A stretch of 64,000 nucleotides of DNA from an uncultured archaeon (GCA_964587725.1 CAZPLO010000001.1:16327-80326); one strand, 5' to 3'. Numbered from the stretch's first letter, positions 4,578 to 62,300 are shown. The notes: generated by a model not told the origin, from the letters alone. A program made the numbers and translations.

Positions 4578-6059
4578 TCACTCGGCGGAGTTGTTCATGC
4601 CTTTTATCTCAGATATCACCCTCTTGGGGTTCCGGTGATATTTCTGGAAGAAGTTCTGGACTGCGTCGTTGTCGCGTATCCCCTTCGCCATCATGTACTG
4701 CAGCACCTTTTCGCGGATGAGGAGTTCAGTGTTCAACCGCTTCTTGGTGATGCCGCAGTCCTTGGCTATCTTCTCCGTCAACAATATGGGGTAGTCGGTG
4801 CGCTTGACCTGGTCGCTGTTGATGTCGTAGTAGAAGATGTCGCCCAGCTGCACCACCTCCCCTTCGACGCCAGACACCTCCGAAACCTGCGTGATCCTCC
4901 TCATCATACCGCGCTTCCGGTCGAATATCCGGTTCATCACCACAATCAAATTCAACAGGGGAATCATGCGTATGGGAACGTTCATGGGCTCGTCCATCAG
5001 CCGGATGGTGGTCTCGCGGGAGTTGTTGGCGTGCAGCGTGCACATGCTCCCGTCCAATCCGATGTCCATGGCCACGAACAACGTCTCAGCCTCCTGCCCC
5101 CTCACCTCGCCGACGATGACGCGGTCGGGCCGCATGCGGAGGCTGTTTTTCAGGAGACTATGCATGCTTAATCTGTGGCTCAAATCTGTTACGGTAGGGG
5201 ATGCCTCCAGCGGCACCCAGTTCTCTATGAACTCGAAGTTAAGCTCCAACGTGTCCTCAACCGTAACCACCCGCTCCGTCTTCGGAATGAACATGGCGAG
5301 GGCGTTCAACAACGTCGTCTTCCCTGAGCCCGCGCCGCCCGCAATCAGCAAATCCACGGGCGACAGCCCGAACCCCTCCACGCACACCCACAGGAACGCC
5401 GCCAGCTCCGAGCTCATGCTCCCCAACTCGATGAGGTCTAATATGTTATAGGGGGTCTTCTTGAACTTCCGTATAGTCACCGCCGGCCCGTAGGGGGCTG
5501 CGGGAGGGATGGCCACGTTCGCCCGGCTGCCGTCGGGCATGTGCGCGTCCAGCAGCGGACTCTCCTCGTTCAGTTCGCGGCCGACGTAGTTGGCGAGCCA
5601 GTGTATCAGATCCTCCAGCGGCTCATGGGATTCGAAGTTTACGTTGGTCACGCACATCCCGTGCTTGCGGTGGACGACGAACACGGGGTTGTTGACGCCG
5701 TTGACCATGATTTCCTCCAGCATCTCATCCCTCATCAACGGCCCCAGGCGGCCGTAGCCGAGGAATATGTCGTCCATCACCGTCGAAACCACGTACTCCA
5801 GGTTCTCGGCGGAAACGTTCCGGCCCTTAATCTGCTCCTTCAAATAGTTTCGGAGGAACTCCTCCTTCTCCACGCTGCTGTGTATCTTCTCCAGCTCCGC
5901 GGTAATCTTCTTGTAGTCTCCTATGAAGTTACGGGCCTCGGAGATGACCTTCTTCTCCTCCTCAGTCAGTTCAGGCGTCAACGAGATGTAGTAGGGTATC
6001 TGGTCCCCATCCCCCTCCATAATCTTCACGTTCCCGTAGGAGTCCAGCAGCTCAGGCAT
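4578..6059 (-). CDS. Type IV filament / secretion ATPase, FlaI/PilB/GspE family (orphan copy)
   Basis: Walker A LLIAGGAGSGKTTLLNAL, Asp box and Walker B (RPDRVIVGEVRG), His box (TLHANN); 493 aa. There is no adjacent platform gene. Confidence 0.85.
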   Translation of the reverse strand: MPELLDSYGNVKIMEGDGDQIPYYISLTPELTEEEKKVISEARNFIGDYKKITAELEKIHSSVEKEEFLRNYLKEQIKGRNVSAENLEYVVSTVMDDIFLGYGRLGPLMRDEMLEEIMVNGVNNPVFVVHRKHGMCVTNVNFESHEPLEDLIHWLANYVGRELNEESPLLDAHMPDGSRANVAIPPAAPYGPAVTIRKFKKTPYNILDLIELGSMSSELAAFLWVCVEGFGLSPVDLLIAGGAGSGKTTLLNALAMFIPKTERVVTVEDTLELNFEFIENWVPLEASPTVTDLSHRLSMHSLLKNSLRMRPDRVIVGEVRGQEAETLFVAMDIGLDGSMCTLHANNSRETTIRLMDEPMNVPIRMIPLLNLIVVMNRIFDRKRGMMRRITQVSEVSGVEGEVVQLGDIFYYDINSDQVKRTDYPILLTEKIAKDCGITKKRLNTELLIREKVLQYMMAKGIRDNDAVQNFFQKYHRNPKRVISEIKGMNNSAE

Positions 6060-6089
6060 CAGTAAACTATTATGTCCCGCGAATAAAAA

Positions 6090-6911
6090 CTACAAGCGGG
6101 TGCGTGACAGCATGTCCTCGACTTCGCCGTCGTCAAACCCTATCAGCGGATGATACACCGGCACATCCTTCTTCCGCATGCTGACGTCCTCCACCGACGC
6201 AGGAGACACCAGCCCCAGGGAGCACTGGAGTGCTTCCTCCAGTGAACCGTAGACTTTCACGCCGGGGTTGCTGTAGTAACTGAGTTTCACAGCGTATTCC
6301 TTCGGACCCAGCAGGTTTATCAGGCAGCCGCGGCGCATCATCATCCACGCAGCCAACGCACCCCTTCGGGTGTTTACTTCCGCAGCCAGCGGACCCTGGG
6401 TCCCATACGGGAGGCCTCCGAATCCATCGTATGATGCGGTGTGCACGTATGCGGTGTCGGATTTCACCTCCACCCCCACCGTCACATCCGGGTTCGACAG
6501 ATCAACGGGGTTCCCGTATTCTTCCTGGATGCGGGCGCCCAGCATACTCTCCAACTCCCTGCTCGACCTCCCGTAATCCCTTGACCTGCGGACCCTAACA
6601 GCGAAGGAGCCGTCCAGGCCTCTGAACTGTTCGACAACGGATTCAGCCAGTTTCCGAGGGTCGGAGTCGACTTCGACAGCGGGGCTGACCGACTTAACCC
6701 CGAAGACTTCTGCAACCCGTTTGGCGGCCTTATCGGCTTCCGGGGACTTCAGGTATATGCGGTGCCTCTTTGTCAGAATCTTAGCCTCTAAGCCGGAGGA
6801 GTCGAGTGCGTGGCGTACGTTGCCTACCAGTTGTCGGGTGAACTGCCGGCGCACGTAGCCGCTCTTCAGAAAAATCTCGCCGTAACGGACTATGACTGTG
6901 TCGCAGTCCAT
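6090..6911 (-). CDS. ThiI-like THUMP-domain protein lacking a canonical PP-loop
   Basis: The N-terminus IVRYGEIFLKSGYVRRQF is the ThiI/THUMP signature. A C-terminal ...RPLIGFDDGEV-like element is also ThiI-like. The expected SGGxDS PP-loop is replaced by ...TRRGALAAWMMMRRG..., and the protein is about 100 aa shorter than ThiI. Confidence 0.6.
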   Translation of the reverse strand: MDCDTVIVRYGEIFLKSGYVRRQFTRQLVGNVRHALDSSGLEAKILTKRHRIYLKSPEADKAAKRVAEVFGVKSVSPAVEVDSDPRKLAESVVEQFRGLDGSFAVRVRRSRDYGRSSRELESMLGARIQEEYGNPVDLSNPDVTVGVEVKSDTAYVHTASYDGFGGLPYGTQGPLAAEVNTRRGALAAWMMMRRGCLINLLGPKEYAVKLSYYSNPGVKVYGSLEEALQCSLGLVSPASVEDVSMRKKDVPVYHPLIGFDDGEVEDMLSRTRL

Positions 6912-6917
6912 CGTGTT

Positions 6918-7265
6918 TCAGCCGCCCGTCGGTGGCTGCAGCATCCCCTGGATTTCGGAGCGCATCTGGTTGAGTTTCTCGGCTAGCTTCTTCTCCTGCT
7001 TCTCCAGCACCTTCAGCTTAGCGGAGGCGGTGTCCTTCTCGTCTCCCAGGTACTTGAGGCCGTCGTCTTTGTTGGTTTCCACCATCACCGGCCCCACCAT
7101 ACGGTACACCTTACCCTGCTGGAGTTTGTCCAGCTCCTTCCGGGCATTCTCCAAGTCCGTGCTCTGCAGCATCAGCTGTTGTTTCTGCACCGCAATCATC
7201 TGAAGCTGGTTCTGGAGGTTCTGGAACTGCGCCAGCTTATCCTGCACCTGCTGTGGAACATCCAT
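6918..7265 (-). CDS. pfdB: Prefoldin beta subunit
   Basis: 115-aa coiled-coil protein with QQ/LQ-rich helices flanking a central beta hairpin (KVYRMVGPVMVE), typical of prefoldin beta; it sits at the conserved position after pcc1/rpoP. Confidence 0.85.
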   Translation of the reverse strand: MDVPQQVQDKLAQFQNLQNQLQMIAVQKQQLMLQSTDLENARKELDKLQQGKVYRMVGPVMVETNKDDGLKYLGDEKDTASAKLKVLEKQEKKLAEKLNQMRSEIQGMLQPPTGG

Positions 7266-7287
7266 TGCCTCAATACATAAGGAGAGA

Positions 7288-7361
7288 GGGTATAAAAGGG
7301 GGGAGGGAGGAGTATAAGATATTCAGAAAAAAGTTTAAACAGTTTAAAATAAAGTTTAAAC
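7288..7361 (-). promoter_or_regulatory. pcc1-pfdB intergenic region: oligo-T terminator-like stretch, three AGTTTAAA(C) direct repeats, TATA-like box for pfdB
   Basis: The minus strand reads GTTTAAACTTTATTTTAAACTGTTTAAACTTTTTTCTGAAT...CCTTTTATACCC, located about 25-35 nt upstream of the pfdB ATG at 7265. Confidence 0.4.
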
Positions 7362-7597
7362 TATTTTGACTCCGTGAGTTTCAGGCACATGTCGAGCCAC
7401 CGTATGTAGGTGTTGGCGGCGGCCCGCATCGCATGGAGGTCCCCGGCCTTCGCATTGAGTACGATTTCGCAGTCTTCATAGGAGAGGCTGACTTCGCTGC
7501 GCTGGTAGGCGTCGGACTCCGCCTCCGGCTTAATCGACTGCAGGACTGCTTCGGCGGCTTCCACTGGAACCTTCACCCTGACAGTGAGTGTGTTCAT
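7361..7597 (-). CDS. pcc1: KEOPS complex subunit Pcc1
   Basis: 78-aa protein between rpoP and pfdB, the conserved superoperon position of Pcc1. The layout is a small alpha/beta protein (VRVKVPVEAAEAV...). Confidence 0.65.
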   Translation of the reverse strand: MNTLTVRVKVPVEAAEAVLQSIKPEAESDAYQRSEVSLSYEDCEIVLNAKAGDLHAMRAAANTYIRWLDMCLKLTESK

Positions 7598-7746
7598 CTC
7601 GCGATGACGGTCTTGGTTATGTTTTCGGGGCGCTTTTTAATCCAGATGTTGCTCCTCTTCTCAGTGCAGCTGTTGCACTTCATCTTGTTCCGCGCCAGCT
7701 CCTCGTACTCGTATTCCGCACCGCACTCTATGCATACGTAGGTCAT
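7594..7746 (-). CDS. rpoP: DNA-directed RNA polymerase subunit P (Rpo12/RpoP)
   Basis: Internal ATG of track ORF 7594..7869. The 49-aa Zn-ribbon protein is MTYVCIECGAEYEYEE...KCNSCT (CxxC..CxxC). It overlaps the rpl37ae stop by 4 nt. Confidence 0.8.
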   Translation of the reverse strand: MTYVCIECGAEYEYEELARNKMKCNSCTEKRSNIWIKKRPENITKTVIAR

Positions 7747-7991
7747 TGCTCCTCCTCCGCCGTCACCCGGCGGACAACGGGTACGTGGGAGCCGCCCGTG
7801 AACGTGTATCCGCAGGTCCGGCACATCCAGACGCCCGCGGAAACCCGCTTCAGCTTCCCCCTGCTGCATGTGGGGCAGCCGCTGGCCTTCCTCCGGTCAA
7901 CCTCCACCTTAACGGCTTCGTTCCGGAGTTTCCGGCCTACGCGGGTGCCGTAGCGGCCCATGCTCCCGACCTTGCGTGTGTGACTGAACAT
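7743..7991 (-). CDS. rpl37ae: Ribosomal protein L37ae (eL43)
   Basis: GRYGTRVGRKLRNEAVKVE...CPTCSRGKLKRVSAGVWMCRTCGYTFTGG is the classic L37ae Zn-ribbon. Confidence 0.9.
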   Translation of the reverse strand: MFSHTRKVGSMGRYGTRVGRKLRNEAVKVEVDRRKASGCPTCSRGKLKRVSAGVWMCRTCGYTFTGGSHVPVVRRVTAEEEQ

Positions 7992-8037
7992 CTTGGCTTA
8001 TGTTGTAGGAAGTAGGGGGTTATAAATATCGCCGGCC

Positions 8038-8060
8038 GGTTGGGCCGGCGATTAAAACCC
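8038..8060 (-). terminator. Perfect 9-bp-stem hairpin immediately after the rrp42 stop, followed by a TATA-like ATATTTAT ahead of rpl37ae
   Basis: TCGCCGGCC-GGTTG-GGCCGGCGA inverted repeat at 8038..8060; TTTATA element at 8031..8038. Confidence 0.45.
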
Positions 8061-8837
8061 TTATTTCTCCATCACAGACCGTATCTCCTTGCCCCTCTTG
8101 AAGGCTGTGTCGACGCACGACTTCGCCTCGTCGACGGTGAAGGAGCCTGTCCCGCCCTTCTGCAACGCGTTCAGCGTGTCCGTGGTGGTTACCGTCAGAC
8201 GCGCGTCCATCGCGTACTCTTCGTCGGTGGTCGGGTCAAGTATTATCTTGTCCCGGATCTTGTGGAAGGTCAGCGGCACGGGCGTCGACTCCATGGGGAT
8301 TTTACCGTCCCATTCCCCGCGCACGGCCCTGCCGTCCTCCAATTTCGGCATCCTCGAATCCAACAATGCTGCTGCTGCGGATATGCCGCAGGCGTCGATT
8401 AGGTTGCCGTCGTTGTTGAGTATGTGGATGTCCAAGAACAGAATCCACACCTTCCCTTCTTCGATGAAGAGTTTCTTGAAGTCTATGCAGCCTGACTCCC
8501 GTATTCCTCGGTCAACGACACGCGCCAACTCAATCGCGTGTTCACGCGGAGGCCCCGACTCGAAATACGGTGACGCAATCGGCCGCAGCTCCGCTGCCGT
8601 CGTCATGACGCCGGAGTCCGGCGAGTCCGGGTAGGGTTCCGCGACGTCCATGCTGACGCCCGTCAACACCTCGGTGTCGCCGAGTTTCACATATGCGGAG
8701 CCGCTGGACTTCTCCCCGACGTAGCCCTTTGTTATCTCCAACGGCCTTATTTCGTCGAGTTTCCGGCCGTCAACCCTCTTGCCCTCCGACACGAGGTTGG
8801 CTATGTAGTCTCTCTTGAGATAGTATTCTATTTTCAT
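8061..8837 (-). CDS. rrp42: Exosome complex component Rrp42 (RNase PH-like, inactive subunit)
   Basis: RNase PH fold protein (...[16 protein letters not shown]...[13 protein letters not shown]...) immediately after rrp41, the conserved order. Confidence 0.85.
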
Positions 8838-9562
8838 TCCTGCACCTCCACTTCCTTAAGCGTCTTCTTCATGAGTTCGTACACCTGCATGCAGCCGTCG
8901 AACGCGAGGTCGAAGGCCTTCTCGAACTCTTCCTGCGTCAATACGCCGTCCATCTGCAGCAGCACTACCTCCCCGGTCCTGGGCACGATCGCCAGCGGCA
9001 GGTCGCATTGTCCGAAGTTGTCCTCCTCCTTCATCAAATCGAGGATTATTTCTCCGTCCGCCTTCCCGGCCGCGCAGGCCACAACCAGGTCCCTCATGGG
9101 GATTCCCGCGTCCGCCAAAGCCAGCGACGCCGCAGTCAACCCGACGCACCGTGTGCCGGCGTCCGCCTGCAGTATCTCCACGAAGACGTCGATTGCCGCG
9201 TTCGGGTACTTGTGTGTGCGTACGACGTTGGTCAGCGCCTCGCTGCTTATCTTGCTGATTTCAACGCTTCTCCTGTCGGGGCCCGGCCGCTTGCGGTCGT
9301 CCACGCTGAACGCCGCCATATTGTAAGTCAGACGCACCGTAGCCTCCGTCGGGTTCTGGAGGCGCCGCGGATGCATCTCCCGCGGACCGTACACTCCAGC
9401 CAACACCTTGTTTTTACCCCACTCAACGTAGGCGGAGCCCTGGGCGTTCTTCAACACCCTGACCTTCATCTTTATCTCCCTAAGTTGGTCGAACTTTCGG
9501 CCGTCCAGTCTGACGCCCTTGTCTATCAACTTCATATTCGTTTCGCCACTCATTTGCATCAC
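8834..9562 (-). CDS. rrp41: Exosome complex exonuclease Rrp41 (RNase PH-like, catalytic subunit)
   Basis: ...[17 protein letters not shown]...[19 protein letters not shown]...; RNase PH signatures, 242 aa, overlapping-stop coupling with rrp4 and rrp42. Confidence 0.9.
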
Positions 9563-10218
9563 TTCTTCTTTGATTTTGAACTAAGGAACTTGGTAACCCT
9601 GTCTGTCAAGCCGGAGGTCTGGGCCTCCCGCTCCACCATCCGCAGCGCCTCCACCGCCAGCGGAAGGTTTCCGCCCTTCAGCCATATGAGGCCGTTCTGC
9701 CCCACGATGATATGAGATCGTGTATTATCACGTATCAACGTTATCATCGATCTTTTGCGGCCGATTATGCGGGGCACCCGCATGGGCTTAACCCTTATCA
9801 CGTACCCCTCCTCGAGCTTCCTGGGGCCCGTCAGCTGAGCCTCCTTCACCTCGTCAACGTACACTATCTTCGCACTCAACAAATCGCCGACAGAGTATGA
9901 CTCCTGCTCCCTGGGGCCGCGGCGGTCGTTCCTCGGCTCCCGGAGCACGCCCAGGTAGGGGCCGTCCAAGTCCACCAGGTATATGCCTCCGAGGTCGCGG
10001 TCTACCACGCCCAGTACGACGTCGCCTGACTTCGGCACGTACGCGCCGTCCGACGGTATGATGTTCACGTTCTTGCCGCTGACCCGCGCCAGCCCCCTCA
10101 CCAGAGAGTATGCGCTGTCTCCCTCGGCAATGCATTCTCCTTCGCATCTCACGCCTTCACCCAGTTTCTCCCCGGGCAACACTATCTGCCTGTCTTTCAC
10201 GTTACTCATGTTTAACAA
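9559..10218 (-). CDS. rrp4: Exosome RNA-binding cap subunit Rrp4 (S1 + KH)
   Basis: N-terminal domain + S1 ([26 protein letters not shown]) + C-terminal KH ([10 protein letters not shown]) arrangement; conserved position upstream of rrp41. Confidence 0.85.
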
Positions 10219-10915
10219 CCTTCGTCTTCACGTCGCCGTGTGTCATACTGTTAAGCCGGCTGAACAGTTCGTCCTGCATGCCAGCAGGTATCTCAATCAG
10301 CACGTACTGTTCGCCGCCAACCCAGTCCTCCTTCTTCACGTCACCGTATTCCCGGAGGGTGCTGTACATCTTCCCCGCGTACTCCGCGGGTATTTTCACG
10401 GCTATCTCGAGTTTCTCGAATTTGATTGGTATTATGGGCTTCAGCGCCTTCAGCACCTTCTCCACCTGCTCCCTCGCGCTCTTGGAAAGCAGTATCTCAA
10501 CCCGCGCCTCCTCCATCGCCGCCTCGATGCGATTGATTGGGTGGGGGGTGTTGGTCTGCGGGTTTATGGCGTTCCGCGCTATTACGGCGGCCACCTGTTT
10601 CCAGCGGTCCTCCATCATCTTCCGCCTCTGCTCGGTGGTGAGGTGGAGTTCGCCCTTGCGGAGTATCTCGTCGTATACCCCGTTCATGTCCTCGGCCTTG
10701 AACAGTTCGAGGAGGTGTTCCTCGCTGGCCTTCTCCCCCTTTTTGGCGTCCTTGAACACGTGCTCCGCGGCCAGTACGTCTTCGAGGCGGACGTCTCCGC
10801 CGCTCTTGTATTCGAGGGCCGGGTCTGGGTCCACGTATATCTCGTATGTTTCGCCGTGGGTCTTCAACCGCACTATCACGGCGTCTTCTAAACTGGTCAT
10901 GCTTCCACACTCCAT
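10202..10915 (-). CDS. sdo1: Ribosome maturation protein Sdo1/SBDS
   Basis: The N-terminal FYSH-like domain (VIVRLKTHGETYEIYVDPDPALEYKSG) and the 237-aa length match archaeal SBDS; conserved superoperon position. Confidence 0.85.
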   Translation of the reverse strand: MECGSMTSLEDAVIVRLKTHGETYEIYVDPDPALEYKSGGDVRLEDVLAAEHVFKDAKKGEKASEEHLLELFKAEDMNGVYDEILRKGELHLTTEQRRKMMEDRWKQVAAVIARNAINPQTNTPHPINRIEAAMEEARVEILLSKSAREQVEKVLKALKPIIPIKFEKLEIAVKIPAEYAGKMYSTLREYGDVKKEDWVGGEQYVLIEIPAGMQDELFSRLNSMTHGDVKTKVVKHE

Positions 10916-10952
10916 CCACGCACAAAAGGCAGATGATATATTCTGATGAACG

Positions 10953-11696
10953 TTACTCCTTGGGTTCCTTACTGTCTAGTTCCTTACCCAATTCTTTAAT
11001 AGACTTCTCTATCTCCCCGGTCTGCACCGGCACGTACTTGTCCTTGACTTCGACGGTTATCATGTCGACGCTCTCCGCCTTCACCTTGCCCTCGGACACC
11101 CTGTTCAATCCTATGAGGGCGAGGTTGACCGCCTCCTGCCTGCTGACCCCGGGGCTGTACTTCTCCTCCAGCAGCTTCTCCACGTCCCGCTTCCCCATCC
11201 CTATGGCGCCCGCCATGTATTCTGTGAACGCGCCGCTGGGGTCTGTCTCGAACAGATGCGGGCGGTCGTTGACCCCAGCAACCAGCAGCGCGGTGCCGAA
11301 TGGGCGTGCGCCGCCGAACTGGGTGTAAGCCTGCTTGATATCGCACAGCTCCCTGGTTAGGCCTGCAACGTTCACGGGCTCGCTGTATACGAGACGGTGG
11401 CGCTGAGCCCTCACCCGCGCGTCTTCGACAAGACGTCGGGCGTCAGCCACCAAACCGGATGTCGCAACTGCAATGTGCTCGTCTATCTGGAATATTTTCT
11501 CGATGCTTTTGGGGACAATCAGGCTGGTTGAAACGTTTTTGTCCACAGCCAACAGCACGCCGCCACCGTACACTATTCCCACCGCCGTGGTGCCCCTTTT
11601 GACTGCTTCACGGGCGTATTCGACCTGGAATAGTCTGCCATCGGGGCTGAAAACCGTTATAGCGCGGTCGTATGCCGCAGGACCTTGAGGATACAT
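10953..11696 (-). CDS. psmA: Proteasome subunit alpha
   Basis: YDRAITVFSPDGRLFQVEYA N-terminal alpha-subunit signature; 247 aa. Confidence 0.95.
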   Translation of the reverse strand: MYPQGPAAYDRAITVFSPDGRLFQVEYAREAVKRGTTAVGIVYGGGVLLAVDKNVSTSLIVPKSIEKIFQIDEHIAVATSGLVADARRLVEDARVRAQRHRLVYSEPVNVAGLTRELCDIKQAYTQFGGARPFGTALLVAGVNDRPHLFETDPSGAFTEYMAGAIGMGKRDVEKLLEEKYSPGVSRQEAVNLALIGLNRVSEGKVKAESVDMITVEVKDKYVPVQTGEIEKSIKELGKELDSKEPKE

Positions 11697-11760
11697 TTTT
11701 TCTGCCTGATTCTACCTATTCACTACGTAGCAATGAATATGTAGTTTACCTTTAAAAAGC

Positions 11761-12258
11761 CTACTTGAGGATGTCCCTCGCCAAGTTCAGCCGCTCTGCG
11801 ACGGATTTCCCTTCCCTGGGCCTGTAGCCCTTGGTTTCCCCCACGTAGTCGAGCAGATCGCTCACGTTCGCGCCTGTGAGGCTGGCTGCCTGGGTTACGG
11901 AGACTCCGCGGCTGTGTAGCCGGGAGGCAATCTTTATCCTGGCTTTCCCGACGAGGCCGCCTTCGAAGAACCCGTGTTCGCTGTCGAATTTATCTATTTC
12001 AGAGAGTATGCCGTCGAAATCGTGTTCCCCCAGCTTCATCACCGCCTTTTCAGCGATTTCCTCTGTCTTCTCGCGCATGTGGAGTTTTATGTAGATTTTG
12101 TGGAAGCAGTAGGTTACCATGGCGAGCTTTATCATGTCCTCGCCCTGGGTGGTGGATGCTTCGTCGCTGTAGTGGGACGCGAGCTCCCGCAGCTTCACCG
12201 AATCCCCTGATTTTATGGCCTCCGCGACTTCATCAAGCTTTTTCACTGTAAACTCCAC
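11761..12258 (-). CDS. Hypothetical protein with C-terminal HTH-like segment (165 aa)
   Basis: ORF between the eIF2B-like gene and psmA, overlapping the former by 16 nt. The C-terminal ...RGVSVTQAASLTGANVSDLLDYV... resembles a helix-turn-helix. No confident family. Confidence 0.4.
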   Translation of the reverse strand: MEFTVKKLDEVAEAIKSGDSVKLRELASHYSDEASTTQGEDMIKLAMVTYCFHKIYIKLHMREKTEEIAEKAVMKLGEHDFDGILSEIDKFDSEHGFFEGGLVGKARIKIASRLHSRGVSVTQAASLTGANVSDLLDYVGETKGYRPREGKSVAERLNLARDILK

Positions 12259-13139
12259 CCGAAACGTTCCTTTATGAGGTTGTATGCAGCCTCAGGGGGT
12301 ATTACCCCGTACTCGGTCACAATCATGTTCACGTATTCTTTCTGGGTGACGTCGAATGCTGGGTTGAACACGCCCACACCTTCTATGTCGGCGACTTCCT
12401 TGGGGTCGCGTTCCTCAATTTCTGAAATCATACCCTGCATGCTGTAGGGGGAGAACTTTATGGATTCCGTGCAGACTATGAATTCGACGCCCGCGTGCTT
12501 AGCGGTGACGGCAACCTGGCTGGTGCCTATCTTGTTTATGACGTCGCCGTTCGCGTACACGGTGTCCGCGCCCACGAACACCTTCTTCACGTCGCGGTGT
12601 AGCATGGTGTGGTATGCTGCGCCGTCCACAATCAAGGTCACATCCACCCCCGCCGCCGATAGGTCTTTGGCTGTGATGTGGCCCTGCCACCTCGGCCGCG
12701 TCTCGCATGCGTACACCTTGAACCGTTTCCCCTGCCCCCACGCACGGGACATGGTTTCGGTGACTGTGCGGCTGTTACATATCGTCAACAAAATGTCGCC
12801 GTCTTCGATGAGGTTCGCGCCTATGTCGGCGGCCTTGTCTATGGACGAGTCCAGCTGGGATATGAAGTCCGACACGTCCGCCAGCAGGGTGGCTTTGGCT
12901 ATGCTGGGGTCCTCGTCTCGGTGGGATTCAGCCAGGTGGAGGATGTAGTTGATGGCATTCGGGAGTGAAACAGCGGTGGGCCGCGCATCCCTCAAGATGT
13001 CGCCGGCCTTCACCAGCTCGTCATACGACGCGCCCTCCGAAATCCTCTCCTCCAAGGCCTTGGACGCCGAGACCGCAATCTTCAACGCGCCCCGAACCTC
13101 CATGGACCGAATCTTGCCGGCGGTGTCTTCGACGGACAT
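12243..13139 (-). CDS. eIF-2B alpha/beta/delta family protein (aIF-2B-like or ribose-1,5-bisphosphate isomerase)
   Basis: 298 aa with the family layout: N-terminal helical region, then Rossmann-like domain with ...TICNSRTV..., ...VFVGADTVYANGDVINKIGTSQVAV..., ...FIVCTESIKF.... Confidence 0.75.
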   Translation of the reverse strand: MSVEDTAGKIRSMEVRGALKIAVSASKALEERISEGASYDELVKAGDILRDARPTAVSLPNAINYILHLAESHRDEDPSIAKATLLADVSDFISQLDSSIDKAADIGANLIEDGDILLTICNSRTVTETMSRAWGQGKRFKVYACETRPRWQGHITAKDLSAAGVDVTLIVDGAAYHTMLHRDVKKVFVGADTVYANGDVINKIGTSQVAVTAKHAGVEFIVCTESIKFSPYSMQGMISEIEERDPKEVADIEGVGVFNPAFDVTQKEYVNMIVTEYGVIPPEAAYNLIKERFGWSLQ

Positions 13140-53702: not shown

Positions 53703-53750
53703 TTTAAATGAATTATAAAATAGTTTGAAGATAAGTTCAAATAATTTAAA

Positions 53751-54437: not shown

Positions 54438-56593
54438 AGTATTACGGCGGCCGCGGAGACGGTGAGGAGGATGCCCAGCCAATCCACCGCGGTCTTACTG
54501 TATACCAGCCGCACCCGCTCCTCCGCCGGATAAACCAGCATGAAAGACGGCGACACCAGATAGACCCTGTCCGCGCCCTCCGCCCGCCAGCTCGGATAAT
54601 AGGAGACGCTTATTATGTGGGGTTCGCCCACGCAGTCGGTGGTGAACTCTATCGACTCCGCCTCCACGATTTCCCGGACGCTGCACTCCCTGCCGACGGG
54701 AGCTCCTTCCAGGGTTTCGAGGTCGCCCATCACCGCATCCTCGTAGACGGAGGTGAAGTGCTCACGGTCCACCGAATCCACGGAGTGTTTGAAGGCCACG
54801 GGCGTGTCCAACAGTTCAACGCGCTTGAACCATTGGTAGCTGATGTTCTTCCAGTCCGACGTCTCAAACAATACCGGACGGTTCTCTGGAACAGTCACGT
54901 ACTGCCCGGTGTTGGTGGTGAGCTCCCACACCTCAAACGGGTCCTCCGAGTAGGCGAGCCGCCACTCCGGATGCTCTCTTAAAGCTTTTTTGGCTTTCTC
55001 GCTCCGCGCAACCAGATACTGTGTGTTGAACAGCTTCAGGTGCTCGGTGCCGTTTCCAAGATTGAATGAGGTGCACGGATATATCGCCCAGAAGGGGCAG
55101 CTCTGCTGTTCACTCACCTCCGACTGTATGTAGAATGTGAAGGGGGACGTGTGTATGGACTGCATGTACAGGCCCTCCAGTATGCTGCGGCCCGCGAACA
55201 AAGGTATGCTCTCGAATGCACGCACGGTGCCGGCTGCGTTGTGCTGGTCGCTGTGCTCGAACTTCGCCCTCGGGCTGGCTACGCCGCCCCCCATGAAGTC
55301 GTTCACCGCCTTATACTGCGGCCACAGACTCTTCCTTTCGAACCCTTCGTAGTTCCACCGCACCCAGTGGGGGGTGAATCCGCTGTACTTCCACTCCAGC
55401 AGCTGCGGAACAACCTGGTTGGTGTTGAACTTCACCCCGTCGTCGGAGACCGACACAACAGCCTTGCTGCCGTTCACCCAGTAAACTGTGAGCAGTACTA
55501 CAATCAACGGGACAATCCATTTGGCCTTCAGCGGGCGGATGAGCTGCTGCAGCCCGTATGCGCCGGCGAGCATCAGCGTAACATAAACGAACGGGAGGAA
55601 CCGTATGTCCACCACACCCAGCTTCGAGGCGAGGAAGAAGAACACCAGACCCGACAATATGGAGTAGCCGAGATACCAGACCCTCTTATCCCGGCTGTAC
55701 AGTGAGGTGAAGAAGCCGAACCCCGCCAAAACCACGAACGGCCACAGAATCGGAGGCATCACGTCCTCCGTAATCCGCCAGGGTATGTCGTATGCTGTGG
55801 TGTATTTTATGCGGGCCAGCAGGGGTATAATCCAGAAGCCAGTAAGCATGAACGCGAGCGGATAGGATTTCGCCATGTACAGTATGCGAGATTTCACGTC
55901 GTCCATGTTTTTCCTCAGCAGCAGATAGGTAGTTGACAGCACAGCCCACAACACCGTGTACACGTGGGTCAACGCCACGAACGCCAGCAACACTGAGTTG
56001 TGGAGCACGTATTTCCTGTCTTCCATGCCGCGGTACATGAGGCCGAGGAACAGTATCGTCAGCGACAGGCTTATGCTGTAGCTGAATTCGCCGGCGAGGG
56101 TGCTGGGGATGTTGCCCCCCCACATGCTGTGGGACTCCATGAACAGGAACGGGAGAGAGAATGCGGCCGCCGCAGAGGGTACGGGGAACTTGAACCGCAT
56201 CAGCTTCATGCACGCGTAAGCCGTCAAAGGCAGGGTGAACACCCCCAGCACGGTCACCAGCTTGAACGCTATCTGCAGGGGCATCACATAGCTCATCAGC
56301 GCCATCAACACGAACGGGACCGTGAAGTAGAACTGGAACAACGGCATGCCGCCGTACCATCCCGGCAGCCACCCCATAACATGGCCTTTAGGCAGCAGTT
56401 CGTCGCGTAGGAACTCCGCAGGATAGTAATGTGATGCGGTGTCTCCGCCGGCGGTTATGGTCTCGCTCAACATCACGTCTGGGGTGAATACACTCAGGAG
56501 GAAGCCGTAGACCGCCAGCAACACCACCGCATCAACCACTGACTCCGCGGCGACCTCAACCCTGCGCCCCATGAACTCGAATGTGCGGCTCAT
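54386..56593 (-). CDS. Large polytopic membrane protein (about 735 aa), GT-C-like/YfhO-like candidate
   Basis: Start placed at the internal Met (MSRTFEF...), which gives a 4-nt overlap with the upstream CARDB-like gene. About 13 TM helices, a first loop with a D..SHYY element, a soluble C-terminal domain and a final TM. Confidence 0.5.
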   Translation of the reverse strand: MSRTFEFMGRRVEVAAESVVDAVVLLAVYGFLLSVFTPDVMLSETITAGGDTASHYYPAEFLRDELLPKGHVMGWLPGWYGGMPLFQFYFTVPFVLMALMSYVMPLQIAFKLVTVLGVFTLPLTAYACMKLMRFKFPVPSAAAAFSLPFLFMESHSMWGGNIPSTLAGEFSYSISLSLTILFLGLMYRGMEDRKYVLHNSVLLAFVALTHVYTVLWAVLSTTYLLLRKNMDDVKSRILYMAKSYPLAFMLTGFWIIPLLARIKYTTAYDIPWRITEDVMPPILWPFVVLAGFGFFTSLYSRDKRVWYLGYSILSGLVFFFLASKLGVVDIRFLPFVYVTLMLAGAYGLQQLIRPLKAKWIVPLIVVLLTVYWVNGSKAVVSVSDDGVKFNTNQVVPQLLEWKYSGFTPHWVRWNYEGFERKSLWPQYKAVNDFMGGGVASPRAKFEHSDQHNAAGTVRAFESIPLFAGRSILEGLYMQSIHTSPFTFYIQSEVSEQQSCPFWAIYPCTSFNLGNGTEHLKLFNTQYLVARSEKAKKALREHPEWRLAYSEDPFEVWELTTNTGQYVTVPENRPVLFETSDWKNISYQWFKRVELLDTPVAFKHSVDSVDREHFTSVYEDAVMGDLETLEGAPVGRECSVREIVEAESIEFTTDCVGEPHIISVSYYPSWRAEGADRVYLVSPSFMLVYPAEERVRLVYSKTAVDWLGILLTVSAAAVILYTVFGRSQKLKRFFSL

Positions 56594-57402
56594 CTCCGCA
56601 CCTGATAGTAAAGTAGTACGACAACCAGCGCAGCCAGTATTAATAGCGGCGTCCAAGGGGGGAGGCCGCCCTCACCCGCCTCCACAATGGACACCATGCC
56701 ATTGGCGGCCGCGCTGTAGTGGAAGTCCTCCTCAGCGTAGTCCATGGTCGCGAAAACAACGTAGCTGGACCCAGGCAGCGCCCCGAACGATTTCACCGGA
56801 AAAGACAGCCGGCTTATGCCCCGGGCTGGGACTTCAATGTCTCTGACGTAGTAGTTGGCTGCGAGTTCATCCGGGAGGTGCAGGCGGACGGTGACGTCAT
56901 GGGGTTTTTCGTCTAGGTTGCTGACCTCCAGGCGTAGGTCGCCTCCTTGTTCAGGGGTTATCTTGAGCTCCTCCACGGCTCCGCGAAGGCGGAACGGGGT
57001 GGGGTTCATGTAGCGTATGAACAGGGGGGAGATGGTGGAGAAGGGGTATGCGTTGGCGTCAGTGTAATGCGTCTTCAACACCACCGCATAGGTTCCCGGC
57101 TTCACGGAGTCGTTGACGGACACGGTGTAGGAGTGCGTCTGGGGTGCATTGGGGTTGAGCACGCCCAGGTGCGCCGGTTCAGCGGTGAAGCCTTCCGGAA
57201 GCACCAAATCCACTTGGACGTCGTATGCCGGCTCGTCGCCGGTGTTCAACACGGTCACGTTCAATGGGAAAGAGTCTTCCGTTACCACCTCCGTCTGCGC
57301 CACAGACACCGTCATCTGTATGTAGGATGCCGAACAAGACCCCGACAGAAGGCATAAGACTAAAAACGCGTTTAAAAGTCCGTCTTTCATGAAATCAGCC
57401 AC
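56590..57402 (-). CDS. Secreted CARDB/DUF11-like Ig-fold protein with C-terminal TM anchor
   Basis: Signal peptide (LLNAFLVLCLLSGSCSA). Two beta-sandwich-like modules (NVTVLNTGDEPAYDVQVDL..., LRLEVSNLDEKPHDVTVRL...). C-terminal TM followed by RR. Confidence 0.55.
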   Translation of the reverse strand: MADFMKDGLLNAFLVLCLLSGSCSASYIQMTVSVAQTEVVTEDSFPLNVTVLNTGDEPAYDVQVDLVLPEGFTAEPAHLGVLNPNAPQTHSYTVSVNDSVKPGTYAVVLKTHYTDANAYPFSTISPLFIRYMNPTPFRLRGAVEELKITPEQGGDLRLEVSNLDEKPHDVTVRLHLPDELAANYYVRDIEVPARGISRLSFPVKSFGALPGSSYVVFATMDYAEEDFHYSAAANGMVSIVEAGEGGLPPWTPLLILAALVVVLLYYQVRR

Positions 57403-57451: not shown

Positions 57452-59176
57452 ATGAATTTCTTAAGACGGCGTGGGCGCGCGGGGCAGGCGGGTTTGGAGA
57501 GCATAATACTCTACGGGGGCGTCATAGTCGTCTTGGCCGTGGGCTTGGTGGTGGTGTGGCAGAGCGGCATCCTCCGCCCCTTCCTGGGCCTCAAAGGCTA
57601 CGTGGGATTCAGCCAGGTGGTGCCTGAGGACTGGTCTGTGGGCGTGGACAACGTAGCCTACATGAGTTTGAAGAACACCGGCAGCGCGCCGGTCAACATA
57701 CACGCCCTCGGCGTCGACGTACGTGTTGGGAGGGTACAGTGTGAGCCCTCTCCTCTGGAGGCGGAGGCCGTGCAGCCTGGAGGCGGAGCCATACTGACGT
57801 TCATATGCCCCGGCCCGCCGCCGATAAACGATGAATACGAGGTCGGAGACTACTACGAAGCGGACGTCACCATAAACTACACCAACCTTGTTTCAAACCG
57901 GTTCCACCAGAGCGTGGGCAAACTATACGGTCTCATGGAGGTCGCGGACCTTCCCATCCCAACCACCGTCACCACCATGACGGGAACGACGCTGCCGTGC
58001 GGATGCTTTGAATGCGAATGCAACAAGTCGGGGGAGATAGATGAGGAAAACTGTGAGAAAATACGGTACGGACAGAGCTGCGACTACTGCCCGGAGAGAC
58101 TGGACCTGGACGGCAAGCGGAAGTGCTGGTACAGGGGCAAATGCGGGGACAACTGCAACATCAACAAGGACTGCGTGGACCGCAACGCCAACTACGGACA
58201 CCTTAACGTCTGCAGGGACTGCGTGGACGGAAAGTGCAGGGAGAGCTCGCACCCCTGGTATCCATCCTGCGGCCAGTGCGATTCGGAGGACGCGGGCACA
58301 CTCTACAGCCCTAAATGCGACGGCGAAGAATGCCCGTACTGCCAGAGGGAGTGGGTGCAGTTGAGCGAGCTCCCCGGCGAAAGCGAAGGATACTATAGTT
58401 ACTCCTGCACCACAGGAGACGACTGCGGGGACTCCTGCCTGAACTTCGGAGACGACGTGTACGAGGAGTGCCAGGTACGGTGCGTGCACTGCAGCGAAAC
58501 CCCTGGCGGAGAGCCCACCTGCAGCCAGGGAAGCTGCGGGGAACGCTGCAGCGTAACAGACGACCCCACCTGCAACAGAGGCTGCCTGTGGTGCAACCTC
58601 ACAACGTACAAGTGCGAATTGGGAGACTGCGGCAGACCCTGCGTGATAGGGGACGACGCCTGCCAGCTCGGCTGTGATACTTGCTGGGACGGACGGTGCG
58701 TCGACACCGAAGTAGGCGTCACCATAGACGCGCACAACGGCACCGGCGGAGACGTGGTGGCTGAGAACACCACCATCCACCTGGACGTCCGCGGAGAATG
58801 CGACGACGGAATACACCGGATTCTGGTCAGCAACAGCATACCTCTGCCCCGTGGATTCGACGGCATCACCAGCTGCAGGGACGTGGCCAACGACCGAAAC
58901 AGGCTCGGCGCGATAGAGGATCCGTACGGCGACCCCCAGACTGCGGAGTGGATGAACACGTGGAACATAACCTGGAACGACACATATAGCTGCGGCGGCG
59001 TGAGCCCCTGCGCCAACGTGTGGGAGACCAACGAGTCCGAGATAAACGTTTACTGTTATTTCGCATTGGCTCAGAAGCAGACGCTGTTCGGCGGAGGCAG
59101 GTGGAGCATGATAGCGTCCGACTACATCCAGGTAGGGGACATCGACGTCTACCTTGCTTTCCCGCCTCCCTTTTAG
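57452..59176 (+). CDS. Pilin-like protein with class III signal peptide and hyper-Cys-rich extracellular region (574 aa, more than 60 Cys)
   Basis: MNFLRRRGRAG|QAGLESIILYGGVIVVLAVGLVVV is a QxxxE prepilin-like start followed by a hydrophobic helix. Residues about 185-400 are packed with CxxC, CGxC and DCxDGKC-type motifs. Confidence 0.6.
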   Translation: MNFLRRRGRAGQAGLESIILYGGVIVVLAVGLVVVWQSGILRPFLGLKGYVGFSQVVPEDWSVGVDNVAYMSLKNTGSAPVNIHALGVDVRVGRVQCEPSPLEAEAVQPGGGAILTFICPGPPPINDEYEVGDYYEADVTINYTNLVSNRFHQSVGKLYGLMEVADLPIPTTVTTMTGTTLPCGCFECECNKSGEIDEENCEKIRYGQSCDYCPERLDLDGKRKCWYRGKCGDNCNINKDCVDRNANYGHLNVCRDCVDGKCRESSHPWYPSCGQCDSEDAGTLYSPKCDGEECPYCQREWVQLSELPGESEGYYSYSCTTGDDCGDSCLNFGDDVYEECQVRCVHCSETPGGEPTCSQGSCGERCSVTDDPTCNRGCLWCNLTTYKCELGDCGRPCVIGDDACQLGCDTCWDGRCVDTEVGVTIDAHNGTGGDVVAENTTIHLDVRGECDDGIHRILVSNSIPLPRGFDGITSCRDVANDRNRLGAIEDPYGDPQTAEWMNTWNITWNDTYSCGGVSPCANVWETNESEINVYCYFALAQKQTLFGGGRWSMIASDYIQVGDIDVYLAFPPPF

Positions 59177-59183
59177 GTTTAAG

Positions 59184-62100
59184 ATGAGCAGAGGCTACGT
59201 GGTCACCTGGGACGCGCTGATTGCCCTCAGCTTCGTCCTCTTCCTGATGGTGGGTTTCATAGGCGTACAGTACTTCGGCCGCGTCGCCCGCGGAGGCAGC
59301 GCCTTCGAACGCGCTCACGCGGTGGCCGAGAACGCCATGGACACCATGAACCGCCAGGGTGTGCTGGAGGAGATAGCCCAGGAGTGGGCTCTCGGAAACA
59401 ACGCGTCCGCAGGAAACCTAACCAAAGAATACTTCGACAACGTAATACCCCCGCAGATGGGATACCGCCTTGAGGCCGTCACCCCCGGGGGTGTGAAGGC
59501 CATATACGGCAGCGGAGACGACCGGCCCCCGGAAGAAGACGCCACGGACCAGACCAAAGCCTCCAGACACCTCTCCGGATACAAGGAGGACGCCCCCAGG
59601 TCGGGGTGGACGGGCCGCGCGTGGCTCATAGAAAACCAGAGCTGGTCCGTAAACCTCGTCTCGAACAGGAGCTCTTTTTTCCCGGGCTGGGAGAGCGTGT
59701 CCCTGAAATACAGTCCTGTTCCCCTGAGAAACAACACATTCTATCTCTTGGTGCCGGGTGGAAGCAGCCTTAAACACGCCTCCTTCAACGTCAGCTGGGA
59801 GGGGGGGTCGGTCCCCTCCTACACCACCTTAACCTCTTCATCCAGTTCGTCGTCCTCCAGCTCAACCTCCTCTTCCTCCACCACGGAGCCGAGGGACTGC
59901 CACGACTGTCCGCCAGGAGAAGGCTGCGGCACACCCGGATGGCATGAGATGTCCGGGGACGACTACAACTACCACAACTTCACCATCGGTTCTGGGGACA
60001 GCTGCAACCTCAACCTTAACATATACCGGGAACCGGCCAACCACATGCTGGGGTTCAACCTCTATGACATATACTTCAACCGGATGGACTACTGCGAGCC
60101 CTGCCCGCCGGATGACCCTAACTGCCAGTGCATGTGCAGCCACCCCGAGAGCAGGCCGGACCTGAGGCCCTGGGACTGCGAGACCATAGACATTTTCTAC
60201 GAAAGCTACGAATCCTGTCCAGTGCCGGACCTGCCTCCCGGAACCTACGAGATTATGGTGGACTGCTGGAACCCTGAGGGGATTTCAGTCGACTTCTGCC
60301 CCGGCAGATACTACGTGTACGTAACCTCCGACGGCGGCGACAACTGCCCCAACGACCCGCCCCCGTCCTTCTCCACATCAACTTCCACCGCGGCGACCAC
60401 CGTGGAGGAACCGGGCATGATAGCGCACTGGAAGTTCGACGAAAGCACCGGGCAGATTGCCCTAGACTCCATAGGCGACCACGACGGCACCCTGTACGGG
60501 CCCGAGCGAACGGATGATGCGGTGGACGGACGGGCTTTGTATTTCACCGGCACCGGCGACCTAGTCAGCGTACCCGACGATTCCGCTCTGGATTTGGCGG
60601 AATTCACCCTTGTGGCGTGGATTAAAATGGACAGCAGCGCCCAGCTAGACAATTACCCCGCCATAGTGGGTAAGGGAACGGGGGGTAACAGTAACAGAAA
60701 CTACCGGATGGGGGTGATACAGGCCTCAGGGACAGCTGAGGGAGGCTTCCACAACACCGCCGGGGGATGGATTTCCGTTGAGGGAGATTACGTGGGAGAC
60801 AACACCTGGCACCATGTGGTGTTAACCTATGACCGGTCCCATCTGAGGATATACGTGGACGGTGAAGAACCAAACTCCTTACCGGCGACCGGCACGCCCG
60901 CAACAAACAACGAACCCCTGGAGATAGGCAATGTTGAAGGTGATGATTTAAAGGGTATCGTAGACGACGTGAGGATGTACAATTACGCCCTTGACGCGGG
61001 GGAGGTTCAGTCCATCTACGATGAAACAAGGCCGGACAACAAGGGAGACGCCTGCACCGAGGACAGCGACTGCATGTCGGGGAACTGCGCGCCAGACTAC
61101 GACGGGGATGGAAGCTGGTGTGCTCCGGCGGGCAACTGCGCCCACAGCCCCACCAGCTCATGCGATGAAACCTGCTACGGATACCGACAGGGAGACTACG
61201 GCGCAGACTGCATAGACGACACCCACCTGCACCAGTGCGACCCGGACGGAAACGGCGACGGGGTGTGGGGAATCGTTCTCTGCCCGGTATGCAGTCCCGC
61301 GGAGCCGGAACCCAAGGACACCCCCTGCATAGGAAGGTGGATGTGCCAGGACACCGGCGGCCATGCCTCCTGCGACGCAGGCTGCACCAGAGACGGGGCG
61401 GCATGCGACTTCTGCGGAAGCTACGCCAGGGACACGCCAGGAAGCGACACTTGGTACGACGGAGAATGCCTGGCCGGGGTGTGCGAGACCGTTAAGATAG
61501 AGTGCCAGCGTTGTATGTCCTGCAGGAACCTGTCACAGTACGAGTGTTTGTGCACGGCAACCGGAGGCGTCAACAACTACGTCTACGGCGAGGAGGATAA
61601 CGTGGGACCCAACACCTGCTACGGAACACAATACTGTGACGGCGCGGGGGGCTGCCTGTCGCCGGTAACATGCTCCAACTGGCCCATCAACATAATATAT
61701 GAGTCAGATATGTGCTCCGACTCGTGGGACTGCGACGACGACGGAAGCGAAGACGGCAACCACACGAGGTTAAGCTGGAGAAACCATGGTTCCGGAGACT
61801 ACTACATTGGGGGGTGGCACGAGTATGATGACCCTGTGGAGGAATGGACTCACACGAACCGGGACGACGATGACGTCTCCATAGGGGTGGAGCAGGTAGA
61901 TTTTGACGGAAGCCCCTACGTACACCACGGCTCCTCATTCGACTTCACAGCCTACGTGGGGGAGGGAGTCGACACGTTAAGCTTTGGCTTCTCTGCCATG
62001 CCAAGAGGCAACTGCTATGAAACAGTAGAACTCTACGCCTCCGGAACCCTGCTGGGATCCTGCGACATAGGGGGCGTGGACTGCAACAACGACAACCTGC

Positions 62101-62300
62101 TACCCCCCGTAGGTGATTCGGTGTGGCATTACTGCACCATAGATGTGAGTGGAATCCAGGGCGGGGGACCGGTGACGCCGGGTGCGGTCAACACATTCAA
62201 CGTCGAATTCCCGCTGCTCCCCGGTGTTTCTGGACCGATGGGTTGCAGCGCGTACCCGTGCACCATGTTCATCGACGCGATAGGTATTACATGCGGCTGA
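59184..62300 (+). CDS. Giant pilin-like adhesin (about 1038 aa) with LamG/ConA-like lectin domain and Cys-rich modules
   Basis: Internal ATG of track ORF 59154..62300. MSRG|YVVTWDALIALSFVLFLMVGF N-terminus. Central LamG-like signature (...GRALYFTGTGDLVSVPDDSALDLAEFTLVAWIKMDS...WHHVVLTYDRSHLRIYVDGEE...DDVRMYNYAL). Ser linker SSSSSSSSSSTSSSS. Many Cys. Confidence 0.6.
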   Translation: MSRGYVVTWDALIALSFVLFLMVGFIGVQYFGRVARGGSAFERAHAVAENAMDTMNRQGVLEEIAQEWALGNNASAGNLTKEYFDNVIPPQMGYRLEAVTPGGVKAIYGSGDDRPPEEDATDQTKASRHLSGYKEDAPRSGWTGRAWLIENQSWSVNLVSNRSSFFPGWESVSLKYSPVPLRNNTFYLLVPGGSSLKHASFNVSWEGGSVPSYTTLTSSSSSSSSSSTSSSSTTEPRDCHDCPPGEGCGTPGWHEMSGDDYNYHNFTIGSGDSCNLNLNIYREPANHMLGFNLYDIYFNRMDYCEPCPPDDPNCQCMCSHPESRPDLRPWDCETIDIFYESYESCPVPDLPPGTYEIMVDCWNPEGISVDFCPGRYYVYVTSDGGDNCPNDPPPSFSTSTSTAATTVEEPGMIAHWKFDESTGQIALDSIGDHDGTLYGPERTDDAVDGRALYFTGTGDLVSVPDDSALDLAEFTLVAWIKMDSSAQLDNYPAIVGKGTGGNSNRNYRMGVIQASGTAEGGFHNTAGGWISVEGDYVGDNTWHHVVLTYDRSHLRIYVDGEEPNSLPATGTPATNNEPLEIGNVEGDDLKGIVDDVRMYNYALDAGEVQSIYDETRPDNKGDACTEDSDCMSGNCAPDYDGDGSWCAPAGNCAHSPTSSCDETCYGYRQGDYGADCIDDTHLHQCDPDGNGDGVWGIVLCPVCSPAEPEPKDTPCIGRWMCQDTGGHASCDAGCTRDGAACDFCGSYARDTPGSDTWYDGECLAGVCETVKIECQRCMSCRNLSQYECLCTATGGVNNYVYGEEDNVGPNTCYGTQYCDGAGGCLSPVTCSNWPINIIYESDMCSDSWDCDDDGSEDGNHTRLSWRNHGSGDYYIGGWHEYDDPVEEWTHTNRDDDDVSIGVEQVDFDGSPYVHHGSSFDFTAYVGEGVDTLSFGFSAMPRGNCYETVELYASGTLLGSCDIGGVDCNNDNLLPPVGDSVWHYCTIDVSGIQGGGPVTPGAVNTFNVEFPLLPGVSGPMGCSAYPCTMFIDAIGITCG

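Follow-up and report, generated by a model that had tools for sequence, protein, structure and literature searches.

Filament genes in the window

We analyzed a 64,000-nucleotide stretch of DNA from an uncultured archaeon (GCA_964587725.1, CAZPLO010000001.1:16327-80326), referred to here as the window, in which genes for type IV filament components and KaiC-like ATPases crowd together between positions 4578 and 62300. A first-pass annotation of the same DNA had described this density as a surface-appendage supercluster and a possible hotspot of filament diversification. Genes were called with a self-trained codon model, and the encoded proteins were scanned against Pfam and NCBIfam. The components that the annotation had counted were recovered: three T2SSE-family ATPases (PF00437; 123 bits for 4578-6059(-), 108 for 23670-25322(-) and 109 for 30269-32008(+)), three KaiC-domain proteins (PF06745; 55 bits for 25324-26052(-), 167 for 33206-33913(-) and 192 for 37639-38337(+)), and three T2SSF platform proteins (PF00482; 62 bits for 32005-32892(+), 58 for 33984-34964(+) and 18 for 21920-23668(-), the last scoring 428 bits against NCBIfam ArlJ). 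Ten proteins carry prepilin-like N-termini according to a FlaFind-like class III pattern ([KR][GA], then Q, L, F or Y, then a hydrophobic stretch), with gene starts at 27239, 27670, 28077, 28589, 28975, 46461, 46887, 47816, 57452 and 59154. Pfam also identified glycosyltransferase or GT-C-like genes (GT4 at 34961, PMT_2 at 36039, DUF2079 at 52230, GT2 at 53751 and PTPS_related at 54386), and the giant surface proteins measure 1705, 1048, 756, 713 and 574 aa. Several of the counted items are ordinary parts of known machines: among the ATPases and KaiC proteins are ArlI and ArlH, and one of the platform proteins is probably ArlJ.

The GC content is 57%. Identical proteins were found only in the Logan assemblies of SRR7048218 and SRR7048219, and the nearest genome matches to the 30269 ATPase were three metagenome-assembled genomes of Candidatus Altiarchaeota/Altiarchaeales (71-75% identity). 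No hamus-type S_Layer_N protein was seen in the window, which together with the GC content is consistent with the hamus-poor 'Alti-2' side of the group. Altiarchaeota are abundant uncultured carbon fixers of the subsurface, known for their hami and double membrane.

A predicted archaellum motor core and its upstream genes

Three minus-strand genes in the order arlH-arlI-arlJ, separated by 1-bp gaps, form a tightly packed operon predicted to encode the archaellum motor core. ArlH (FlaH; 25324-26052), the KaiC-like ATP-binding protein, matched NCBIfam NF052589 with 226 bits (cut-off 215). The motor ATPase ArlI (FlaI; 23670-25322) scored 716 bits against the equivalog NF058587 (cut-off 550) and is 86-89% identical in relatives. 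The probable membrane platform ArlJ (FlaJ; 21920-23668) is full length at 582 aa, has NCBIfam ArlJ/FlaJ as its top match, and is 77% identical in the related genome Bin_400 (WJMO01).

Two genes on the same strand precede arlH. The nearer one (26084-26419) encodes a 111-aa coiled-coil protein with only weak matches to coiled-coil families. It accompanies ArlHIJ in Bin_400 and in the related loci L007-L009 and is missing in L010, where ArlHIJ is missing too; it is a candidate stand-in for ArlC/ArlX. The second gene (26468-27193) heads the arl operon and is always divergent from a pilin operon. Its product, a membrane protein of 241 aa that is specific to the clade, consists of a conserved helical domain in the cytoplasm, one transmembrane (TM) helix and a Cys-rich TPR-like ectodomain.

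A pilin operon with its own ATPase and a split platform

The start codon of the pilin operon lies 45 bp from that of the 26468 gene, on the opposite strand, across an AT-rich spacer. Its five genes (27239-27667, 27670-28080, 28077-28592, 28589-28978 and 28975-30234, all on the plus strand), identified by their N-termini, encode pilins of the Epd type with class III signals and show gene overlaps of 4 bp. Together with the 30269 ATPase and the one-domain T2SSF protein at 32005, they make up an operon of seven tightly packed genes. The pilins have Q at position +1 and belong to the PF04021/Epd type, with major pilins of about 140 aa carrying a Q-x-S-x-E class III signal and several minor pilins besides. 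The five-pilin set is conserved in Bin_400, L010 and L008. The family of pilin 27239 has 447 remote relatives, and among the 61 that were scanned PF04021 was matched by 12, with no match to the archaellin family PF01917.

The ATPase gene, 34 bp downstream of the last pilin gene, encodes FlaI-3 (30269-32008(+)), a 579-aa pilus assembly ATPase that combines its T2SSE domain with a weak PilB3_C match. Its best Protein Data Bank (PDB) match is 2OAP (236 bits). FlaI-3 has an N-terminal extension of about 120-170 aa before the region that can be aligned with FlaI/GspE2; FlaI-1, the ATPase at 4578, is without it.

The platform is split. The TadB/C-like protein at 32005-32892(+), with one T2SSF domain, aligns with positions 3-248 of a 555-position ArlJ model, and the protein at 33984-34964(+), also with one T2SSF domain, aligns with positions 192-461 of a 465-position ArlJ model. 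Because these alignments cover the N- and C-terminal halves of ArlJ models, two of the three T2SSF proteins in the window together constitute a single platform. Between them, on the minus strand, lies a KaiC-like single-domain ATPase (33206-33913) that falls below every NCBIfam KaiC family cut-off; its position is kept in Bin_400, L010 and L003. Its gene overlaps by 4 bp that of a 106-aa partner (32889-33209(-)), which is 69-78% identical and syntenic in Bin_400 and L010 and has no family match in Pfam or NCBIfam. The KaiC-like proteins with PF06745 scores of 167 and 192 bits have Walker A motifs (GSGKT and GTGKT). With this gene content, the FlaI-3 locus would encode an Epd/Tad-like adhesive pilus.

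The operon of the third KaiC

From the second platform half onward, the operon runs through a GT4 glycosyltransferase (34961-36064), a PMT_2 GT-C mannosyltransferase-like protein (36039-37592), the third KaiC-like ATPase (37639-38337), a 295-aa partner (38334-39221) and triosephosphate isomerase (TIM), all on the plus strand. PMT_2 is kept and GT4 is absent in L010 and L004. An AlphaFold2 model of the 295-aa partner (pLDDT 87) shows a helical N-domain, a PH-like domain and a C-terminal winged helix-turn-helix (wHTH); its family has nine members. The TIM gene overlaps the end of the partner gene by 4 bp (37639-39919 overall) and holds the same position in Bin_400 and L004, so that a gene of central glycolysis apparently shares an operon with a presumed KaiC switch.

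An orphan ATPase and further pilin and adhesin sets

FlaI-1 (4578-6059(-)) is an orphan CpaF/TadA-like type IV filament ATPase. Its best PDB matches are Archaeoglobus fulgidus GspE2 (2OAP, 245 bits) and bacterial CpaF (236 bits), and orthologs with 47-82% identity occur in many Altiarchaeota/Altiarchaeales assemblies. An exosome superoperon (6090-13139(-); IF-2B family, proteasome alpha, SBDS, Rrp4, Rrp41, Rrp42, L37ae, Pcc1, prefoldin beta and THUMP) continues directly into the FlaI-1 gene. This linkage is kept in several Altiarchaeota, and FlaI-1 follows the exosome operon also in L094, L095 and L010. An inverted repeat between 5382-5411 and 31190-31219 was considered as a structural element and set aside, as it is read as the shared coding of two paralogous ATPase genes on opposite strands.

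The gene at 4181-4576(+) is convergent with FlaI-1, and its product, which spans the membrane once or resembles a lipoprotein, has an ectodomain of Cys-rich helical repeats. BLASTP (27% over 116 aa, E=6e-6) marks this product as paralogous to the ectodomain of the 26468-27193 protein, and a Cys-rich, TPR-like helical ectodomain is common to both. Its orthologs adjoin FlaI-1 in L010, L011 and L094, some with lipobox-like N-termini. We can only guess at a role of these two proteins in envelope anchoring or piloting.

In the second pilin/adhesin set (46461-52196(+)), the 46461 gene encodes a 141-aa paralog of the major pilin. The other members are two pilin-like proteins, of 315 aa and 756 aa, and a secreted Cys/Thr-rich repeat protein of 713 aa. 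PF04021 (Class_IIIsignal) was matched by the 46461 and 46887 proteins, two of the ten that fit the N-terminal pattern. A pilin hidden Markov model (HMM) built from remote homologs links four proteins, 27239, 27670, 46461 (E=2e-30) and 46887 (E=1e-8), and by this model 46461 is a full-length paralog of 27239. Three 363-bp tandem repeats (50458-51983) lie inside the gene for the 713-aa protein (50055-52196) and encode Thr/Pro-rich linkers and Cys-containing modules. A third set (57452-62300(+)) consists of two giant Cys-rich proteins with class III N-termini, of 574 aa and 1048 aa, the larger with a LamG domain (Laminin_G_3, 95 bits); they are probable tip adhesins or minor pilins. An ortholog of the 59154 protein lies directly beside the FlaI-1 and 4181 homologs in L011/L012. 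The large proteins of both sets contain 22 (47816-50086), 32 (50055-52196), 45 (57452-59176) and 51 (59154-62300) cysteines, which is unusual for extracellular proteins of a presumed anaerobe.

Arrangement in relatives

Bin_400 is collinear with the window from the AglB-like gene at 19752 through PurF (19.7-42.4 kb of the window) and has two additional genes in its pilin operon. JAZDMS01 has the order prefoldin, FlaI-1, 4181 homolog, 26468 homolog, five pilins and FlaI-3, followed by a platform half, the KaiC pair, the other platform half, PMT_2, KaiC, its partner and TIM; ArlHIJ and the 111-aa gene are absent. L010 places FlaI-1 beside the pilin/FlaI-3 module, without ArlHIJ. A third lineage (L011 and L007, one 31.7-kb contig) carries FlaI-1, the 4181 homolog, the 59154 homolog, TFE, HD and a prepilin peptidase, followed by the AglB-like gene, ArlJIH, both of the genes that precede arlH, and the pilins. 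In L008, from the same lineage, the pilin set stands beside ArlHIJ and is not followed by FlaI-3.

The invariant unit across these arrangements is the 26468 gene divergent from the pilin set, with ArlHIJ and the FlaI-3 module each flanking it in some lineages only. The arrangement at the left end of the window (FlaI-1, 4181, hisI, eIF1A and RIO1) also occurs in the more distant L095 and, minus the 4181 homolog, in L096. Because it is shared with these loci, it is probably ancestral, and the two arrangements with pilus modules directly beside FlaI-1 look derived. A metagenome search anchored on DUF2079 returned mostly distant contigs from outside Altiarchaeota, and no relative spanning 42-62 kb.

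Clustering of filament modules is thus normal for this lineage, with modules reshuffled around fixed anchors. The first-pass annotation had foreseen that such a norm would make the locus less noteworthy without removing the clustering, and this is what the relatives show.

Glycosylation genes, an S-layer-like protein and other neighbors

Convergent with arlJ, and adjoining it in Bin_400 and L007 too, is a gene (19752-21923(+)) for a divergent AglB/STT3-like GT-C membrane protein with a weak PMT_2 match. Its annotation as an AglB-like oligosaccharyltransferase was the weakest of the first-pass assignments. The protein has 'GWDRGY' where WWDYG is expected, has no STT3 match in Pfam, and found no match in a PDB sequence search; in favor of the assignment, its L094 ortholog (43% identity) is STT3-positive in Pfam.

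A four-gene cassette (52230-57402) encodes DUF2079, GT2, a PTPS_related membrane protein and a CARDB/NPCBM_assoc TM protein, as classified by Pfam. Three or four of these genes co-occur in many distant metagenome contigs (L015, L025, L031, L091, L019 and L065) that have no matches to the window pilins. This recurrence argues that the cassette is independent of the filaments; it is a widespread envelope-glycosylation module.

The gene at 13160-18277(-) encodes a 1705-aa S-layer-like surface glycoprotein with a signal peptide, NosD/beta-helix repeats, Ig-like domains, a Ser/Thr stalk and a C-terminal TM anchor. With Pfam matches to Beta_helix, NosD and Big_13 and with 87 N-x-S/T sequons, it probably belongs to the S-layer-type glycoproteins. 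L094 and L095 do not have the gene between IF-2B and NFACT.

At the right end of the window, an HD-domain gene that follows TFE-alpha (62841-63356(+)) has a GC3 of 0.54 and a codon score below all its neighbors, yet is syntenic in L011.

Separate filament modules in a native chromosomal neighborhood

Collectively, these findings make it likely that the window is a native chromosomal neighborhood of an Alti-2-type member of Altiarchaeota, in which separate, anciently diverged type IV filament modules adjoin one another with housekeeping genes in between. What the analysis shows is the identity of the genes, their spacing within operons, their synteny in relatives, the age of the paralogs and the native composition; which ATPase uses which pilins and what the KaiC proteins regulate is inferred. 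ArlH, ArlI and ArlJ would encode the archaellum motor core, preceded by two lineage-specific genes. FlaI-3 and its two-piece platform may polymerize the pilins once these have been cleaved by a prepilin peptidase encoded elsewhere, and the KaiC-like protein at 33206 could serve this pilus as its secondary, FlaH-like ATPase. The CpaF-like FlaI-1, found across the phylum, might work in trans with the pilins and adhesins encoded at 46-52 kb and 57-62 kb. The third KaiC and its PH/wHTH partner would form a nucleotide-dependent switch over the expression or activity of filament genes, and GT4/PMT_2, the AglB-like protein and the four-gene cassette would probably glycosylate the pilins and the S-layer-like protein.

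Several points weigh against this interpretation. As far as it is visible, the archaellum locus is incomplete: beside ArlHIJ we recognized no archaellin, ArlF/G or ArlCDE/X, and ArlJ, with 428 bits its best match, stays under the 550 cut-off and reaches only 18 bits against Pfam T2SSF. None of the scanned window proteins matched PF01917 (archaellins ArlA/B and stator proteins ArlF/ArlG), and none, including the 111-aa and 241-aa proteins, matched the Pfam or NCBIfam families for ArlCDE, ArlX, FlaC or FlaD/E. Likewise, no archaellin, FlaF/G/C/D/E or ArlX emerged when the five pilins and the products of the two genes preceding arlH were scanned against Pfam and NCBIfam, and the precomputed gene tables for the relatives' loci, which cover genome fragments only, showed no archaellin, ArlF/G or ArlCDE. 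ArlCDE/ArlX-type components may be too divergent for simple searches (Makarova 2016, PMC4858521). Similarly, FlaI-1 has no adjacent platform gene, and Pfam scans found no prepilin peptidase (EppA/Peptidase_A24) in the window, so it is a matter of conjecture which pilin set goes with which ATPase; in one relative, a Peptidase_A24 gene lies about 9 kb from FlaI-1. By PDB similarity it is FlaI-1, not FlaI-3, that is nearest to bacterial CpaF, which is awkward for the Epd/Tad-like label of the FlaI-3 locus, and the ATPase clade labels, drawn from family scans and ambiguous PDB similarities, are provisional. The comparison also draws on only three or four relatives, at no more than 22 kb per locus each.

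The first alternative to consider is that the five-pilin operon belongs to ArlHIJ or is shared with it, such that Epd-type pilins and the accessory 26468 and 26084 proteins replace archaellins and ArlF/G/CDE. It would account for the lack of PF01917 archaellins, ArlF/G and ArlCDE in the window and in the relatives' gene tables, and gene tables published for Alti-2 list FlaH and FlaJ without an archaellin (Bird 2016). In every case the pilin set and the first gene of the arl operon are divergent, with 45 bp between the start codons, and L008 has this set beside ArlHIJ with no FlaI-3 after it. Against this, the pilins are PF04021/Epd-type proteins with Q at +1, and none of their 61 scanned relatives was archaellin-like. 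In the window and in L010 they share an operon with FlaI-3, and in L010 the pilin set and the 26468 homolog accompany FlaI-3 and the split platform where ArlHIJ is missing. Archaellins are frequently encoded elsewhere in the genome (PMC4858521), and these genomes were viewed as fragments. On balance, we regard a pilin set that serves ArlHIJ as unlikely. That a rotary ArlHIJ builds a pilin-type filament or rotates it, or has subunits in common with the pilus machine, as a non-canonical archaellum or a living pilus-archaellum intermediate, is likewise of low probability.

A second alternative treats the locus as a horizontally acquired or hypervariable surface-appendage island, a hotspot of filament duplication and diversification. 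In its favor, module order differs among lineages, which marks the region as rearrangement-prone; the pilins diverge fast (28-63% identity versus 86-89% for ArlI); the presence of the S-layer-like and GT4 genes depends on the relative; and Bin_400 has two additional genes in its pilin operon. Core order is nevertheless kept at about 75% protein identity, and the housekeeping genes interspersed among the filament genes (exosome/proteasome, NFACT, TIM, PurF, ArgJ, rhomboid and nitroreductase) are syntenic in relatives, at odds with a single supercluster. The comparison with the housekeeping block lent no support to horizontal acquisition, as the filament genes match housekeeping genes in GC, GC3 and codon usage, and neither tRNA genes, insertion sequence (IS) elements nor flanking repeats were found in the window. 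A mobile island was rejected on this uniform composition together with the lack of tRNA genes and repeats. Paralog identities are 24-33% overall (ATPases 28-33%, KaiCs 30%, BLASTP), values low enough to indicate ancient duplications; recent duplication was therefore rejected, and with it the idea of an ongoing diversification hotspot. An acquired or hypervariable island is accordingly improbable.

That the modules are co-located by chance and without functional meaning is least probable of all: the glycosyltransferase cassette and the housekeeping genes are clearly unconnected with the filament genes, but the estimate for three ATPases within 27 kb falls below 1e-3 (3*(27/2000)^2, about 6e-4, a rough inference that assumes a genome of about 2 Mb), at least two of the modules are co-located within 7-25 kb in four of the four relatives with visible context, and two differently arranged lineages have further pilus modules directly beside FlaI-1. 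The dense clustering of filament genes that the annotation had reported is thus non-random.

Taken as native, separate modules, the locus provides a compact parts list for an Alti-2-type lineage, with a motor core, an Epd/Tad-like pilus, an orphan ATPase, three pilin/adhesin sets, and KaiC switches with new partners. Its main value is for annotation. The missing canonical archaellin, in the window and in the relatives' loci, is the only lead to something new: if these lineages truly lack archaellins, this would bear directly on the evolution of the archaellum from pili.

Comparison with known systems

The motor core resembles that of known archaella in its H-I-J order, 1-bp spacing, and ArlI and ArlH scores above equivalog cut-offs. 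The probable platform is full length, and close by is an additional KaiC-like gene, comparable to cirA in the Haloferax arl cluster. It differs in having no recognizable archaellin, ArlF, ArlG, ArlCDE or ArlX adjoining and in an ArlJ score under the cut-off, and the genes upstream encode instead a coiled-coil protein of 111 aa and a TM protein that is specific to the clade and has a TPR-like ectodomain.

The FlaI-3 locus shares with Epd-/Tad-like pili (Makarova 2016, clades 1 and 2; Denise 2019) its class III major pilins of about 140 aa with several minor pilins, one ATPase, two platform genes with single T2SSF domains, and a FlaH/KaiC-like secondary ATPase, and it has large LamG-type adhesin-like pilins nearby, as in clade 1 systems. 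In Epd-like systems, short pilins occur with a pair of one-domain platform genes and a secondary ATPase resembling FlaH (PMC6668835), and euryarchaeal pilus loci often have two tadC genes (PMC4858521). Unlike in those systems, the platform genes here are non-contiguous, split by an opposite-strand KaiC pair, and the window has no EppA/prepilin peptidase and no MinD/FleN gene. Archaeal genomes carry one to seven secretion ATPases (Makarova, Koonin and Albers 2016, PMC4858521), two of which lie in one locus in Aciduliprofundum, and ATPase/TadC modules evolve independently of pilin sets and can share them (PMC4858521).

KaiC-family ATPases, some of them with a small helical partner, are strongly linked to the loci of archaella and pili (PMC4858521), and the KaiC-like CirA, encoded in the Haloferax arl cluster, represses arl transcription and motility (PMC10983859). 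Like such regulators (arCOG01171-01175; CirA), the KaiC-like proteins described here have one KaiC/RecA-like domain whose Walker A motif is intact, and their genes lie within or next to ATPase/TadC operons; one of these proteins is paired with a small partner protein. In contrast, the partners belong to narrow clade-specific families (nine matches for the 295-aa partner), no KaiB-like gene is present, and the combination of PH-like and wHTH domains is not described in the surveyed KaiC and type IV pilus literature.

The 1705-aa protein, compared by description only, resembles the hamus/S-layer protein of Ca. Altiarchaeum hamiconexum, which has 1808 aa and a NosD domain (PMC4975002), in its NosD beta-helix, size and heavy predicted glycosylation. 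It differs in that S_Layer_N and FKBP_C were not detected in it and in that its gene is absent at this position in relatives. A double membrane has been reported at least in Ca. Altiarchaeum (PMC4975002).

The linkage of KaiC proteins to pili, split platforms and several systems per genome are already known in archaea. The locus holds no new kind of system; what is new here is the lineage-specific partners and the unusually compact layout.

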